Virus record (IMG/VR): IMGVR_UViG_3300045988_079972
Coordinates: 1-56,872 of that record
Length of the DNA: 56,872 bases
Reading direction: 5' to 3' (one strand)
From: a virus
The first letter of the stretch is position 1, and each line of letters opens with the position of its first letter. Under the pieces are notes generated by a model. That model saw nothing but the letters and a program-made list of their open reading frames with translations. It did no database searches and was not told the DNA's origin. The position numbers and the translations under genes are program-made. Below, one piece after another: positions 7,449-56,848 of the stretch.

Positions 7449-7829
7449 TTATGAATAAATCAAGTTGTAAGCATCTAAATATTCTGAATGTTTTTTGACA
7501 AATTCAATTTGTGCTTTTTGTGCTTCGTCTGAATTTTTGCCTGAATGCAAAATTTCATAAAACAAATTGACAAGCTCCATTTTTTGAGAGTTTACAATTT
7601 TGCATTTTTCACGCTCTTTTTTATCAAAAAGCATGAAGACCCAGGAATAAGCATTCCGCTCGCAGTCTATTCTGTGATTTTTGCAAAACTTTTCAATAAC
7701 AGGAGTGAATGCGATATATTCACTCTGGTTGTCGAACTTTATGTAGCAGCCGACGCCACCAACTGTATTTTTGAAAGTTTCGTATTTTAAATTATATTTT
7801 TTGCAAAAAACAATAATTTTATTTACCAT
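7449..7829 (-). CDS. Hypothetical protein (leftward operon, gene 4)
   Basis: 126 aa, RBS attaggagggcaaaaag. Confidence 0.65.
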   Translation of the reverse strand: MVNKIIVFCKKYNLKYETFKNTVGGVGCYIKFDNQSEYIAFTPVIEKFCKNHRIDCERNAYSWVFMLFDKKEREKCKIVNSQKMELVNLFYEILHSGKNSDEAQKAQIEFVKKHSEYLDAYNLIYS

Positions 7830-7856
7830 CTTTTTGCCCTCCTAATTTTATTTTAA

Positions 7857-7900
7857 AGCAAGCCGGGGAATCGAACCCCGGAAAAGTGCCGACACTTGCC
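7857..7900 (-). ncRNA. tRNA-like acceptor/T-arm minihelix (no D arm or anticodon arm) inside the leftward operon
   Basis: Minus-strand read GGCAAGT-gtcggcacttttc-CGGGG-TTCGATT-CCCCG-GCTTGCT-T: canonical T-loop; 7-bp acceptor-like stem (5 Watson-Crick and 2 G-U pairs). Confidence 0.45.
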
Positions 7901-8193
7901 TAAATACAACTTTTGAGTGCTAATCTTTTGACCTCTTCGCATTTGACATTAACAAGATATTTTGCTCGGTCAAAATTAACCTTTCCACCTGTGCAATTAA
8001 CAATGTAATTTGCACATTCTATGTATTTGTTAAATTCTTTTTCGTATGCCTTATCAAAGGCTTTTTCTAACTCTGCATCTTCTGGGTTCTTTTCCCACCT
8101 CTTTTCTATTGTGTCGCAAGTTCTTGCAAGCTCACAATATTCGTCAATCAGTTCATGTAATTTTTTCATCATATCAACCGTCCTTTCTGCCAT
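7900..8193 (-). CDS. Hypothetical protein (leftward operon, gene 3)
   Basis: 97 aa; start could instead be Met8 (8172), which has the better RBS aaagga. Confidence 0.55.
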   Translation of the reverse strand: MAERTVDMMKKLHELIDEYCELARTCDTIEKRWEKNPEDAELEKAFDKAYEKEFNKYIECANYIVNCTGGKVNFDRAKYLVNVKCEEVKRLALKSCI

Positions 8194-11755: not shown

Positions 11756-11913
11756 GAGTGAGGTGAAGAGATATGGCAATTAGAGCACCAACAATTTAAA
11801 GTGAAACATTTTTTGAAACTTGTTTAACATTTGTATTTTAATTCATATCTTTAGTACTTCATAAAAATATTACATATCACACACCGCAAGGCGATAACAG
11901 TCTTGCGGAATAA

Positions 11914-11985
11914 TGGGGTATCGCCAAGAGGTTAAGGCATAGCACTTTGACTGCTACATCATGGGTTCAAATCCCATTACCCCAG
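11914..11985 (+). tRNA. tRNA-Gln (anticodon TTG)
   Basis: Hand-folded cloverleaf: acceptor TGGGGTA/TACCCCA, anticodon arm TAGCA-CTTTGAC-TGCTA, T-arm ATGGG-TTCAAAT-CCCAT. Confidence 0.85.
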
Positions 11986-12240
11986 TTTGGCAAGATGCCA
12001 TCTTTGTTTTTCTTCTTGCAAAATCGCGGAGAAAAACTCCTTTCCCACACTAGCGGAATGCTGATTAAAGAGCCATCGCACGGCTCGGTGTGGTTGTTCG
12101 GGTGTCTATCCCACGATGCCCGAACTTACATACTTTTTCCGTACTGGACTAATGTAGTTCCATTACAACTTTCACACCCACCCATAACACACAGGTGCTT
12201 GCATACCATCTTAAAGCCTATACATAGGTGTATGCAGTTT

Positions 12241-12312
12241 TGGCATATAGTTCAGTGGTAGAACGCCTGACTGTTAATCAGGATGTCGCAGGTTCGATAC
12301 CTGCTATGCCAG
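12241..12312 (+). tRNA. tRNA-Asn (anticodon GTT)
   Basis: Acceptor TGGCATA/TATGCCA, D-arm GTTC-AGTGGTA-GAAC, anticodon arm CCTGA-CTGTTAA-TCAGG, T-arm GCAGG-TTCGATA-CCTGC. Confidence 0.9.
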
Positions 12313-12318
12313 TTAAAC

Positions 12319-12371
12319 AGAGTAAGCATGGTGTAGAATGGTGGTTCGAGTCCACCTGTGAGCATAACTCT
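12319..12371 (+). ncRNA. Truncated tRNA-like element (canonical T-arm, no D or anticodon arm)
   Basis: AGAGT-aagcatggtgtagaat-GGTGG-TTCGAGT-CCACC-tgtgagcata-ACTCT; shares AGAGTA...ATGGTGT with the minihelix at 13197. Confidence 0.35.
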
Positions 12372-12430
12372 AGCGAAAAAGGTACTCACCGCTTCTTTCC
12401 TAATGTTCTTAGCGATATAAAGAAAATTAG

Positions 12431-12520
12431 GGGCGAACGGCAACGATTGGTGGTGTTGCGGCAGACTGTAAATCTGTTCCCATGTGGTAAACAATAGAGG
12501 TTCGATTCCTCTTTCGCCCA
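12431..12520 (+). tRNA. tRNA-Tyr (anticodon GTA), long variable arm
   Basis: Acceptor GGGCGAA/TTCGCCC, anticodon arm GCAGA-CTGTAAA-TCTGT, 18-nt variable arm, T-arm AGAGG-TTCGATT-CCTCT. Confidence 0.85.
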
Positions 12521-12523
12521 TTT

Positions 12524-12606
12524 GCAGATATGGTGTAATGGTATCACAGTAGCTTGCTAAGCTATCCAGTAGAAATGCTGTCAAGGTTCGAATCCTTGTG
12601 CCTGCG
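12524..12606 (+). tRNA. tRNA-Ser (anticodon GCT), long variable arm
   Basis: Acceptor GCAGATA/TGCCTGC (one A-C mismatch), anticodon arm GTAGC-TTGCTAA-GCTAT, 16-nt variable arm, T-arm CAAGG-TTCGAAT-CCTTG. Confidence 0.75.
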
Positions 12607-12799
12607 TTATGTCAACACTTGTGCAGAAACCAATGTCGGCAATGGAAGAACAGAAACTAGCTGTTGACATTATACTTTTACTCTCGACAAACATCAATAA
12701 GGATGGTTCGGGAACGGTATAACAAAGTCCGTATGAATTATACAAATATAGCAACAAAAATAATTCAATCCGTAAGTAGATGCTATGAGCTTACGGTTT

Positions 12800-12917
12800 C
12801 GGATAGTAGCTTAATGGCAGAGCTTCCTCGGAGCCGAAAGTGTAAGAATAAGGATGGTGCACACGAATTATTCTGAGAAAAAGCAGAGTGGCAGAGGTTC
12901 GATTCCTCTCTATCCGG
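12800..12917 (+). ncRNA. Oversized tRNA-like RNA (118 nt): intact acceptor, D and T arms but expanded, unfoldable core
   Basis: CGGATAG/CTATCCG acceptor, GCTT-AATGGCA-GAGC D-arm, AGAGG-TTCGATT-CCTCT T-arm (identical to tRNA-Tyr); 68 nt between the D and T arms, including the AGAATAA/TTATTCT hairpin; I could not fold a standard anticodon arm. Confidence 0.45.
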
Positions 12918-13016
12918 TTTATTTGGTCAGTGATATGCTGTTGGCTTAACTGGTGGTCTATGTCATGGCTGAATACAATACACGCCCACGCAAAAATACT
13001 AGTTACGACGCGGGTG

Positions 13017-13128
13017 GTAGATAGTGACGGAATAGGTAAACGGAATTGTCGTAGAGAATTGGGTGCAATCGACAACTTAGCTACCCAGGTTGCGCACTCC
13101 TGTGTGGTGCAAATCCACACCTATCTAC
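13017..13128 (+). ncRNA. Oversized tRNA-like RNA (112 nt) with 8-bp acceptor-like stem and 6-bp T-like stem
   Basis: GTAGATAG/CTATCTAC; GTGTGG-TGCAAAT-CCACAC; the core holds a long bulged hairpin TTGTCG..ATTG-GGTG-CAATCGACAA and the direct repeat ACGGAAT x2. Confidence 0.4.
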
Positions 13129-13196
13129 TTATCCCTGGCAATTACAAGGATAGCTGATAAACAGGCTTTTTAAAGCTCCTCCTAACAGTATGAAGA

Positions 13197-13243
13197 AGAG
13201 TAGACAGATGGTGTTTTATCCGGTTCGATTCCGGACTACTCTT
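13197..13243 (+). ncRNA. tRNA-like acceptor/T-arm minihelix (47 nt)
   Basis: AGAGTAG-acagatggtgtttta-TCCGG-TTCGATT-CCGGA-CTACTCT-T: perfect 7-bp acceptor stem and canonical T-arm; no D or anticodon arm. Confidence 0.5.
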
Positions 13244-13282
13244 TACTAAATTAACTTTAAAATATTAGAAAAGGAGTAAATA

Positions 13283-13798
13283 ATGGATAATTTACAGCAA
13301 CACAAACAGCTTTTACAACAAATACATGATACATATTTCAAGAAAAATCATGATTATGGCGATAGCTTTAGTCGTTCATTTAAGAAATATGGATTAGTAG
13401 CGGCTATGGTTCGCATGGAAGATAAATGGAACAGACTTGATAATATGGCATCAGGAGCAGAACAGAAAGTTGCTGACGAAACTATAAGAGATACGCTGTT
13501 AGACCTTGCTGGATATTGCGTTATGACAACGATGGAACTGGACAGAGAGAAAGACAACGCAAATCAAAAAGCATTTGAAGAACAGGTTCGGGATGAATAT
13601 GCCGAAGTTTTTGGAGAAGATAACGAGAACGAAAAAGAAACAGATACTTCTAATAAAACATCAGCGGAAAAGAGTTCTATTGATGTAGGCAAGGTAATGG
13701 CTTTACATAATGCCAAATGGTCGCAGGCAAAAATTGCTGACGAAATGGGATGTTCACAAAGCATGGTATGTAAGATTATTAAAAAATATAAACAGTGA
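13283..13798 (+). CDS. DUF1599-like all-alpha (MazG/NTP-PPase-superfamily-like) domain fused to a C-terminal HTH
   Basis: KKNHDYGDSFSRSFKKYGLVAAMVRMEDKWNRLDNM...IRDTLLDLAGYCVMT, then an acidic linker, then KWSQAKIADEMGCSQSMVCKIIKKY. Confidence 0.55.
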   Translation: MDNLQQHKQLLQQIHDTYFKKNHDYGDSFSRSFKKYGLVAAMVRMEDKWNRLDNMASGAEQKVADETIRDTLLDLAGYCVMTTMELDREKDNANQKAFEEQVRDEYAEVFGEDNENEKETDTSNKTSAEKSSIDVGKVMALHNAKWSQAKIADEMGCSQSMVCKIIKKYKQ

Positions 13799-55454: not shown

Positions 55455-55474
55455 TATAAAAGGAGGATTTGAAG

Positions 55475-56848
55475 ATGGAATGTGTTGCGTACATGAGAGT
55501 ATCGACAGAAAAACAAGCAGAAGATGGAAACGGGCTGGAAAGTCAAAAAAGAGATATTGATAATTACTGCAATAAGAACGGTTATATAATCAGTGATTAC
55601 TATATTGACGATGGCTATACAGGAGCAAACATGGATAGACCGGAATTACAACGGCTTATTAGTGATTGCGTTGCAAAAAGAATAAAATGTGTAGTTGCTT
55701 TTAAATTAGACAGGTTGTCACGAAGCATGGTTGATGGAATATATATCATCGAACGAGTGTTTCAAGCAAACAACATCTTGTTTAAATGTGTGCATGACAG
55801 TATAAGCTACGACAGTCCGATGGAGCAAGCATATACTCAGATGATGGCAGTTTTTGCACAGCTTGATAAAAATACAATGATGTTGCGTATGCGTGGCGGT
55901 ATGTTGGAAAGAGTAAAGCAAGGCTACTGGATGGGTGGTGGTAACACTCCTTATTGTTATAAGTATGATAAGGAAAAAGGAATTTTAGTACCTATACCTG
56001 AACGGAAAGAGCAGGCAAATCAAGCATTAGATTTGTTTATTGACGGCTATTCGGATGTTGCAATTAAAAAAATGCTTAATTTTACGCATGAGCATACTGT
56101 TAAAATGGTTTTAACAAGTCCAGTAAACATCGGCATGATACCATATAAGGGCAATTTATATAAAGGTTTGCATGAGCCTATTTTTGATAAAGATAGATTT
56201 CAGCTTGCACAGGAAGCGAGGAAAAACAGAAGAAAAAAGAAAACAGTTAGCCTTAACAAAGAACCAAATTTATTGACAGGTTTATGTTATTGCGGTGTGT
56301 GTGGATGTAAAATGCGTTATCAAAAATGGGGAAGTGAATCTGATGCACCTAAAAAAATTTACTGTTGCTCACGAAACAAAGATTTATTTTATTTGCCGAA
56401 TTACAATAAAGACTGCGATAATTCAATAGAATGGGCTACCGACATTGAAAAACAAGTCGAAGCTGAGATAATAAAAATATCTTTAAATTTGTCATCGCAA
56501 AAACCAATCGCAAAGCAGAGTAAAATTGATATAATACAGTCGCAAATCAAAAAGGAAAAATATCGCCGCAAAAGGCTTTTTAATCTTTACGCAGATGGAA
56601 ATGACGATGTTTTGAATATAATAAAACAGTCAGACGATACTATCAGTAGTTTAAAAGAACAACTTGAAATTGAATTATTAAGTAAAGAAGCAAATAAAAA
56701 GAAAAGTATTGCCTATGAGAACATCAAAAAAATTGCCGATGTTTGGGACAGCATCGACAAAAGAAATAAAAATATGATACTTAAAACTATAATTGACAAG
56801 ATAATAATTGTCAATGGAGATATTGAGATACAATTAAAGAATTTTTAG
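55475..56848 (+). CDS. int: Large serine recombinase (integrase)
   Basis: Start ATG 55475 (RBS aaaggagga); AYMRVSTEKQ catalytic Ser motif, DRLSRS, recombinase domain, Zn ribbon CYCGVCGCKM, C-terminal coiled coil. Confidence 0.9.
   Translation: MECVAYMRVSTEKQAEDGNGLESQKRDIDNYCNKNGYIISDYYIDDGYTGANMDRPELQRLISDCVAKRIKCVVAFKLDRLSRSMVDGIYIIERVFQANNILFKCVHDSISYDSPMEQAYTQMMAVFAQLDKNTMMLRMRGGMLERVKQGYWMGGGNTPYCYKYDKEKGILVPIPERKEQANQALDLFIDGYSDVAIKKMLNFTHEHTVKMVLTSPVNIGMIPYKGNLYKGLHEPIFDKDRFQLAQEARKNRRKKKTVSLNKEPNLLTGLCYCGVCGCKMRYQKWGSESDAPKKIYCCSRNKDLFYLPNYNKDCDNSIEWATDIEKQVEAEIIKISLNLSSQKPIAKQSKIDIIQSQIKKEKYRRKRLFNLYADGNDDVLNIIKQSDDTISSLKEQLEIELLSKEANKKKSIAYENIKKIADVWDSIDKRNKNMILKTIIDKIIIVNGDIEIQLKNF

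Follow-up and report, generated by a model that had tools for sequence, protein, structure and literature searches.

A conserved tRNA top-half minihelix and its family in temperate gut phages: a candidate processing signal for host tRNA-maturation enzymes

We examined the viral DNA of IMG/VR record IMGVR_UViG_3300045988_079972, positions 1 to 56,872, referred to here as the window, and within it a 47-nt element at 13197-13243 on the + strand, which we call M1. An earlier note on this DNA had described the element as an acceptor stem stacked on a T-arm, without a D arm or an anticodon arm. Comparison with related phages indicates that M1 is very probably a real tRNA-like RNA element under selection. 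It belongs to a superfamily of minihelices that lie between genes in temperate gut phages of siphovirus-like type; the nearest prophage relatives of these phages are found in Lachnospiraceae genomes. For its function we propose, with a probability of roughly 0.45, that this selectively maintained tRNA "top half" acts in cis as a processing signal for host RNase P and RNase Z.

Structure of the M1 element

The letters at 13197-13243 are exactly those of the earlier description. The acceptor 5' strand AGAGTAG (13197-13203) is followed by a 15-nt linker, ACAGATGGTGTTTTA (13204-13218), and then by a canonical T-arm (13219-13235) composed of TCCGG (13219-13223), the loop TTCGATT (13224-13230) and CCGGA (13231-13235). 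The acceptor 3' strand CTACTCT (13236-13242) closes the 7-bp acceptor stem, and after it come a U at the discriminator position and then UA (13243-13245), with no encoded CCA. The two stems form a coaxial stack of 7+5 bp, and the motif GGTTCGATTCC at 13222-13232 fits the tRNA T-arm consensus GGTTCRANYCC, so that M1 has the two structural features of t-elements and minihelices, in that its acceptor and T stems stack coaxially over about 12 bp and its T-loop follows the tRNA consensus. The element lies on the same strand as the flanking tRNAs and the downstream gene.

Within the linker, the minimum free energy (MFE) fold contains a vestigial D-like mini hairpin, ACA-GATGG-TGT (13204-13214), whose loop ends in GG, and a U-rich TTTA spacer (13215-13218) occupies the place where a variable loop would be. 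The description of M1 as free-standing is therefore right in that the D arm and the anticodon arm are missing, but it overlooks this remnant. With only 15 nt between the acceptor 5' strand and the T stem, M1 does not qualify as a canonical tRNA (RF00005); it was called a tRNA neither by ARAGORN nor by Rfam cmscan at E<=10 with that model. It also lacks known minihelix identity elements (no G3.U70).

Just upstream, G13195 (-2) and A13196 (-1) are able to pair with U74 and U73. Both pairs are possible in all relatives, which makes the stem effectively 9 bp: in the alignment, 15 of 15 distinct sequences form both, the -2/74 pair being G-U in 13 and A-U in 2, and the -1/73 pair A-U in 14 and G-U in 1. 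Downstream, the leader of the next gene (13246-13282, + strand) contains a weak A/U hairpin and the Shine-Dalgarno (SD) sequence AAGGAG (13271-13276), with the ATG at 13283. The fold energy of M1 is only modestly better than that of shuffled sequences (z = -1.6), and the case for the element consequently rests on comparison with relatives and not on folding energy.

Chance expectation and conservation among relatives

A strict scan, defined by a 7-bp acceptor stem with G-U allowed, a linker of 4-22 nt, a perfect 5-bp T stem and a TTCRANN loop, found exactly two elements in the 56.9-kb window: M1 and a second one at 7856-7900 on the minus strand, called M2. First-order Markov simulations gave a mean of 0.07 elements per window, with two or more in 3 of 300, in agreement with the earlier argument that so well placed a complement is unlikely by chance. 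The uniqueness implied for M1 does not hold, given this second copy and a family that extends over more than 100 phage contigs.

For the comparison, loci were fetched from related phages (designated by L-numbers such as L001; 1.6 Mb of DNA in all). Related gut-phage contigs yielded 21 distinct haplotypes with M1, in each of which it precedes the same gene, encoding a 171-aa protein, by about 30-40 nt; a degenerate-pattern search recovered M1 from only 17 IMG/VR contigs, all of this lineage. Among close relatives, the site just 5' of this gene carries M1 everywhere except in L001, L014 and L039, where a different tRNA-like element is found. M1 also survives the replacement of its flanks: the upstream sequence is unrelated in L003 and L005, and two unrelated types of downstream leader occur.

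Across the 21 haplotypes, nucleotide diversity (pi) is 0.020 in the acceptor stem, 0.061 in the T stem and 0.037 in all M1 stems together, compared with 0.142 in the homologous upstream spacer, a four-fold difference. The linker has a pi of 0.12, and the adjacent gene has values of 0.044, 0.030 and 0.089 at codon positions 1, 2 and 3. The T-loop is divided, with a pi of 0.055 at positions 54-58 and 0.43 at positions 59-60. T54, T55 and A58 are invariant, C56 is present in 20 of the 21 haplotypes, position 57 is always a purine, and positions 59-60 are TT or CC; the loop varies only where real tRNAs vary, a pattern of constraint that characterizes genuine T-loops.

Conservation of the paired 7-mers, which the earlier note had proposed as a check, is observed in all relatives that have M1. 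The acceptor 5' strand is kept in the 21 haplotypes, and the sole change in the 3' strand is a C to T that yields a G-U pair (L004, L050). Substitutions in the T-arm stem are G-U wobbles, bar one C.A mismatch, and one variant with a 4-nt deletion was found in two independent assemblies. In the mini hairpin, ACA/TGT is replaced by GCA/TGC or GCG/TGC in L003, L005, L049 and L017, the first pair changing from A-U to G-C. Overall, 97.6% of the cells in the M1 alignment are paired, compared with 40-51% when the 3' partners are slid. As judged from the sequences compared, M1 is neither a chance match nor a neutral relic.

A tRNA-like element of about 130 nt replaces M1 before the 171-aa gene in three loci. 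Elements of this type (L001:3830-3950, L014, L016, L039; also L098, L099 and L114) read AGTTGCT ... GTGGG/TTCGACT/CCCAC/GGCAACT, with the acceptor 5' strand about 95 nt upstream of the T-arm. A homologue elsewhere shows a compensatory acceptor change, TAGCGGCA/TGCCGCTA as compared with TAGCGGTA/TACCGCTA.

The second copy, M2

M2 occupies 7856-7900 on the minus strand and reads GGCAAGT-GTCGGCACTTTTC-CGGGG-TTCGATT-CCCCG-GCTTGCT-T, with a linker of 13 nt. Its helix can be drawn as 6+6 or 7+5 bp, a 12-bp stack in either case. It is placed between two open reading frames (ORFs) of the same strand, 7900-8193 and 7449-7829: it begins at the TAG stop codon of the small upstream ORF, and its end lies about 27 nt before the next start codon.

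The pattern formed by the M2 T-arm and 3' strand occurs in at least 116 IMG/VR contigs, next to many different genes. Since the 5' strand was left out of the search pattern, its state is independent of the search. Of 95 distinct contexts, that strand pairs by Watson-Crick rules in 61 and has G1.U72 in a further 27. Overall, its departures comprise 30 of the G.U type and 3 of the A.C type, an imbalance that points to selection on the sense-strand RNA. The flanks of M2 fall into 33 downstream and 17 upstream protein clusters, mostly of 50-130 aa proteins. The element sits in a hypervariable region of small accessory genes, and in the window a weak ArdA-like ORF adjoins it.

A covariance model built from M2-family copies only (R1, with the window M2 among its seeds) gives the window M2 58.4 bits, and M1 is its best non-self full-length match in the window, a result that is supportive, not decisive. 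No Rfam family reached its threshold on M1 or M2. The best Rfam match of M2 is mascRNA-menRNA (RF01684), with 23.6 bits against a gathering score of 42.5, and this model did not report M1 at E<=10. Similarly, the tRNA-like domain of tmRNA gave just an 18-nt T-arm fragment (11.9 bits), and YrlA gave no match.

The wider minihelix family

The minihelix architecture has 204 matches in the 1.6 Mb of related phage DNA, compared with about 5 expected from second-order Markov simulations. These matches form about 30 stem classes, with acceptor and T-stem sequences that are unrelated between classes. A similar excess appears when T-arms are taken as the starting point: among the distinct T-arms outside ARAGORN tRNAs, 132 of 185 have a 6/6 complement to their 3' strand located 6-24 nt upstream, compared with only 10% for shuffled 3' strands.

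The details of the fold are also shared. Linkers contain GG in 92% of the family and in 69% of shuffled linkers, and the longer ones form 4-bp hairpins with NNNGG loops and stems such as TGCA/TGCA, GGCA/TGCC, CGCG/CGCG and ACCG/CGGT. The ACA-GATGG-TGT hairpin of M1 is the same feature, and its GG could take the role of G18-G19 in contacting the T-loop, as in tRNA. Spacers at the place of the variable loop measure 3-6 nt in other family members and are mostly pyrimidine-rich. Position 73 is T in 97 of 135 members, CCA is not encoded, and T-rich trailers follow, as they do in the true tRNAs of the same phages (whose ARAGORN ends are approximate, +/-1). Two classes identified in relatives, M4 and M5, have GC-rich 3' strands.

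The position of these elements relative to genes is highly regular. A ribosome-binding site (RBS) and an ORF start are found on the same strand within 200 nt downstream in 133 of 144 distinct contexts (median 45 nt), with a random control of 33%. In M2, 57 of 90 contexts have the end of the upstream stop codon at position -2 or +1 relative to the element, and in 87 of 90 it is no more than a few nt away. Of the 144 contexts, 86 have a hairpin with a stem of 4 bp or more that mostly begins 3-4 nt past the acceptor, compared with 16% at random positions; the stem of this hairpin varies widely from copy to copy. In L075, a minihelix is found between each of three consecutive small genes. As with t-elements, the minihelices are arranged in sense at boundaries between what would be, once transcribed, functional RNAs.

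In L083, L100, L119, L068, L072 and L117, two of the classes are directly preceded by a terminator-like hairpin with a T-run and have a second hairpin after them. The minihelices of these two classes are thus located between two stem-loops and not directly behind a stop codon.

A proposed role in RNA processing

Bacterial RNase P, RNase Z and the CCA-adding enzyme accept acceptor/T-arm minihelices as substrates, as do some aminoacyl-tRNA synthetases, and CCA-less precursors follow the RNase Z route in Firmicutes. The anatomy of M1 fits these tRNA-end enzymes, with its 12-bp stack, tRNA-consensus T-loop, lack of an encoded CCA and U-rich trailer. Among the three functions that the earlier note had offered (a processing or stability signal, a decoy for tRNA-targeting enzymes, and a relic), the first appears to fit the genomic context best.

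Structure, conservation, family, orientation and gene context are observed in the sequences; transcription, cleavage by RNase P and RNase Z and any effect on expression are inferred. M1 would be transcribed in sense within a phage polycistronic RNA and cut by host RNase P on the 5' side of the element and by host RNase Z behind the U at the discriminator position, the latter step being proposed because no CCA is encoded. Excision would split the RNA of the tRNA island from the mRNA of the downstream gene, whose product contains DUF1599 and helix-turn-helix (HTH) domains, and the new mRNA 5' end would fall at 13244. In family members with a downstream hairpin, the new 5' end would be a 2-3-nt tail before a protective stem-loop; in Gram-positive bacteria, a stem-loop near the 5' end protects mRNAs from 5'-end-dependent decay. 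The enzymes would be those of the host, and a Pfam scan of about 40 window proteins recognized no phage-encoded tRNA-processing enzyme. A broader version of the proposal, in which minihelices punctuate the operons of temperate gut phages and the excised, CCA-tailed minihelices also accumulate as trans decoys for host factors or acceptor-end toxins, strikes us as improbable.

Several observations weigh against the processing signal. The M1 helix is lengthened by the -1/73 and -2/74 pairs in all relatives, and these extra pairs could be an obstacle to RNase Z and could displace RNase P cleavage or make it less efficient. A cut on the 5' side of M2 would leave the upstream mRNA ending 0-2 nt past its stop codon, which looks costly. 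The 25-mer primary sequence of M2 is extremely conserved across different flanks, more so than a purely structural signal needs. R1 finds M1 weakly, with 15.3 bits and an E-value of about 0.12. Finally, there is no statistically significant covariation within M1: the one double change, in the mini hairpin, does not exceed the shuffle control. The sequences are too similar, and a single pair is doubly changed, for covariation to be established; as it was uninformative, we relied on diversity ratios and on the family-level excess instead.

The alternative to which we give most weight, while still considering it unlikely, is that M1 works without being processed, as a cis structure in the 5' untranslated region or intercistronic RNA, where it would either block exonucleases or switch translation, the acceptor 3' strand pairing alternatively with its 5' strand or with the SD region. 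The M1 3' strand and trailer UACUCUUU (13238-13245) are complementary over 8 bp to the SD region AAGGAGUA (13271-13278), the MFE folds of many relatives choose this pairing while retaining the T-arm, and in the window M2 the sequence UUGCUUU pairs with AGGGCAA, which overlaps its SD. The elements are always just 5' of the RBS, and the extended 9-bp stem of M1 buries U73 and U74. However, in most M2 copies the SD (GGAGG) lies behind an intervening hairpin and is not complementary to CTTGCT, and the M4 and M5 classes have GC-rich 3' strands. The pairing is thus found in M1 and in the window M2 but not across the M2 family, and for this reason SD sequestration was demoted to a rival. Moreover, a plain hairpin would suffice for such a role, which leaves the strict conservation of a tRNA-type T-loop unexplained.

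Sequence conservation of M2 across many flanks, which suggests recognition of sequence beyond shape, would be explained by a small RNA acting in trans: an excised, CCA-tailed mini-tRNA that titrates or decoys a tRNA-binding factor. Candidate targets would be abortive-infection toxins directed at the acceptor end (AbiE/MenT-type nucleotidyltransferases and acceptor-stem nucleases), the CCA-adding enzyme and EF-Tu. The location of M2 in a hypervariable accessory region beside a weak ArdA-like ORF, and the many other non-canonical tRNA-like RNAs of these phages, are in line with this idea. Still, an RNA without an anticodon arm is useless against the common anticodon nucleases, a decoy does not need tight, oriented placement between stop codon and RBS, and no partner protein was recognized among the about 40 window proteins scanned; we regard a trans role as quite unlikely. 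The variety of protein clusters around M2 (33 downstream, 17 upstream) and the mosaic junctions at the borders of M1, with two leader types and unrelated upstream flanks in L003 and L005, could also reflect a module of homologous recombination that acts at the DNA level and shuffles accessory cassettes, as the promoter-early stem-loops (PeSLs, considered below) of T4-type phages do, the RNA fold being secondary. The excess of G.U-type over A.C-type departures and the strict sense orientation point instead to selection on RNA, and homology for recombination does not require an architecture that is kept with unrelated sequences. We consider this explanation very unlikely in place of an RNA function, although a DNA-level role could coexist with one.

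The earlier suggestion of a relic, taken here to mean a tRNA gene from which an internal deletion removed the D and anticodon arms and which looks conserved only because the relatives are close, draws on the setting of M1 in a tRNA island beside other odd tRNA-like units and on the variants L017 and L043, with their 4-nt deletion and C.A mismatch. In addition, there is a resemblance between the linker CAGAT-GGTGT and the 5' part of the neighbouring tRNA-Ser, CAGATATGGTGT, which makes an origin from a tRNA plausible. Neutrality is another matter: stems (pi 0.037) four-fold less diverse than the spacer (0.142), T-loop positions 54-58 that are kept while 59-60 are free, survival of M1 where both flanks are replaced, and recurrence of the architecture at 7856-7900 and in about 30 classes with unrelated stems make a neutral relic highly improbable. 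We give the least credence to an intrinsic terminator formed by the T-arm hairpin and a U-rich tail. A simple scan does flag TCCGG..CCGGA followed by CTACTCTTTA in M1 and CCGGGG..CCCCGG followed by CTTGCTTTAA in M2. The U-tract is nevertheless short and interrupted, other families have GC-rich 3' strands and no U-tract, the conserved 5' complement and the T-loop consensus are left unexplained, and a better hairpin with T5 already exists upstream of M1, at 13153-13171.

Two specific derivations were tried and rejected. For an origin by deletion from a co-resident tRNA, the fetched loci hold 173 distinct phage tRNAs, and not one of them combines the acceptor of M1 or M2 with the corresponding T-arm; a few share the T-arm core CCGGTTCGATTCCGG alone, and one ARAGORN "tRNA-Leu" in L128 merely overlaps an M2 copy. 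A tRNA fragment at an attP/attL site would consist of a tRNA 3' part alone, identical to a resident tRNA and adjacent to a tyrosine integrase; in M1 the 5' complement is present, none of these phage tRNAs matches, and the integrase, encoded at a distance from M1 (55469-56848), is of the large serine recombinase type.

Relation to known tRNA-like elements

The closest functional parallel is provided by the t-elements of plant mitochondria, which contain the GGTTCRANYCC motif and adopt non-canonical tRNA-like folds inside mRNA precursors (PMC1920247). RNase P cleavage at a t-element produces the 3' end of the upstream mRNA and RNase Z cleavage the 5' end of the downstream mRNA; some t-elements are located at or within the end of a reading frame, and released t-elements gain non-templated C/A (PMC1920247). 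The T-arm motif and the tight, oriented intercistronic placement of the minihelix family match these elements. In contrast, t-elements are organellar, are usually imperfect cloverleaves of about 70 nt, and their cleavage is demonstrated, whereas M1 has 47 nt and no anticodon arm, and its cleavage is predicted.

The mascRNA/menRNA family (RF01684) offers a second comparison, as a tRNA-like RNA that has a T-arm and a 3-bp D-like hairpin; when RNase P and RNase Z excise it, the flanking long RNA is matured. The alignment of M2 with this model covers the acceptor, the GUG-UCGG-CAC hairpin and the T-arm. These RNAs are nuclear transcripts of vertebrates and keep an anticodon-like stem, and the resemblance is one in manner of working, not homology. 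With the minihelices used as model substrates, M1 shares the 12-bp coaxial acceptor/T stack and T-loop that constitute the minimal recognized unit; those are laboratory constructs, while M1 is genomically encoded and conserved and has two extra pairs, at 73 and 74.

Viruses also encode non-decoding tRNA-like RNAs. The tRNA cluster of phage T4 includes two stable tRNA-like RNAs, species 1 and 2, and murine gammaherpesvirus 68 produces tRNA-like vtRNAs that direct processing by tRNase Z. Both are non-decoding viral RNAs in or near tRNA clusters that are processed by host tRNA enzymes; they differ from the minihelices in being larger (about 70-140 nt) and in having fuller, cloverleaf-like folds. 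To our knowledge, neither is used as repeated intercistronic punctuation between protein genes. The PeSLs of T4-type phages, units of a promoter and a stem-loop, are mobile regulatory cassettes without tRNA mimicry. They resemble the minihelices as short, conserved, structured intergenic modules beside variable small accessory genes, which recalls the flanks of M2.

Full-text literature searches turned up no description of phage minihelix elements, and neither Rfam 15 nor a set of 50,697 annotated phage records contains the family. A 2023 screen that proposed 10,006 candidate structured viral RNAs reports unnamed tRNA-like candidates as well as highly expressed small RNAs in Lachnospiraceae and Blautia phages, and the minihelices may already be among its anonymous candidates. 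The minihelices are thus of a known kind, that of tRNA-like processing elements; the anticodon-arm-less form of 40-50 nt, repeated between bacteriophage protein genes, is apparently undescribed.

The tRNA island and the phage genome

M1 supplies the final T-arm of a non-coding tRNA island of 1.5 kb, at whose end the earlier note had placed it. The island extends over 11756-13282, between a MazG-like ORF and the 171-aa ORF with DUF1599 and HTH domains; ten-base T-arm motifs cluster in it, and ARAGORN identifies tRNA-Gln, tRNA-Asn, tRNA-Tyr and tRNA-Ser. A paralogue resembling M1 is found at 12319-12371 (+), with the T-arm GGTGG/TTCGAGT/CCACC. The sharing of AGAGTA..ATGGTGT with M1, pointed out previously, is real, but 10 extra nt separate its T stem from the ACTCT strand, so that it does not form a coaxial minihelix. 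It is present in L017 with a T-loop change, and its fold is no better than shuffles (z = -0.5).

Other units of the island are equally unusual. At 12800-12917 (+), Rfam detects a tRNA missed by ARAGORN (40.7 bits), with normal acceptor, D and T arms and 61 nt replacing the 15-nt anticodon region; the corresponding place in L014 is taken by a normal tRNA-Leu(UAA) whose acceptor stem, CGGATAG/CTATCCG, is identical. A tRNA-like "shell" at 13016-13129 (+), recognized by neither ARAGORN nor Rfam, has an 8-9-bp acceptor stem, GGTAGATAG / CTATCTACT, a D-arm stem in which relatives differ by compensatory changes (GCG/CGC, GTG/CAC), and an unusual T-loop, TGCAAAT, on a 6-bp stem. An insert of 55-110 nt, wholly different in L006, L014 and L017, replaces its anticodon arm. 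Within 13130-13171 (+) there is a hairpin whose stem varies by compensatory changes among relatives, TATCCCTG..CAAGGATA as compared with TATCCTC..GAGGATA. The small terminator-like hairpin GCTGATAAACAGGC-TTTTT upstream of M1 (13153-13171, +) may be the terminator of the island. The spacer of about 250 nt between tRNA-Gln and tRNA-Asn (11986-12239, +) is well conserved in relatives (e.g. L003, L006) and has no ORF support.

The 173 distinct phage tRNAs called by ARAGORN in the fetched loci include six distinct "tRNA-Stop" (e.g. anticodon tta, L143), one tRNA-SeC and four undetermined calls. Several "tRNA-Val(tac)" calls of 85-86 nt carry long inserts.

The window looks like a complete genome of a temperate phage of siphovirus type, encoding the large serine recombinase, a CI-like repressor, an antirepressor, a G39P-type loader, YopX, a large terminase and an ORF of tape-measure size. 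It is closely related to contigs of 55-60 kb from human-gut metagenomes and IMG/VR, and no close relative was found among the 50,697 deposited phage records. Megablast and blastn searches of those records with the island, M1 and the M2 consensus returned only tRNA-Asn matches, noise at E=5 or nothing. Distant homologues of the downstream gene are found in Lachnospiraceae (Butyribacter intestini, Jutongia, Clostridium sp. CAG:253).

Implications for phage gene expression

The loci examined indicate that tRNA finders miss many phage tRNA-derived RNAs, with 185 T-arms outside called tRNAs and 166 inside. RNA ends defined by tRNA enzymes are known from organelles, from MALAT1/mascRNA and from a herpesvirus, and for bacteriophage operons we found no description of them. 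At 40-50 nt, the element is directly testable and is a possible compact processing tag. Should RNase P and RNase Z cut the minihelices, this would mean that phages of a dominant family of human-gut bacteria borrow the tRNA maturation of their hosts to set the ends of their mRNAs. If this is true, punctuation by mini-tRNAs would be the counterpart, in viruses of bacteria, of mitochondrial tRNA punctuation.

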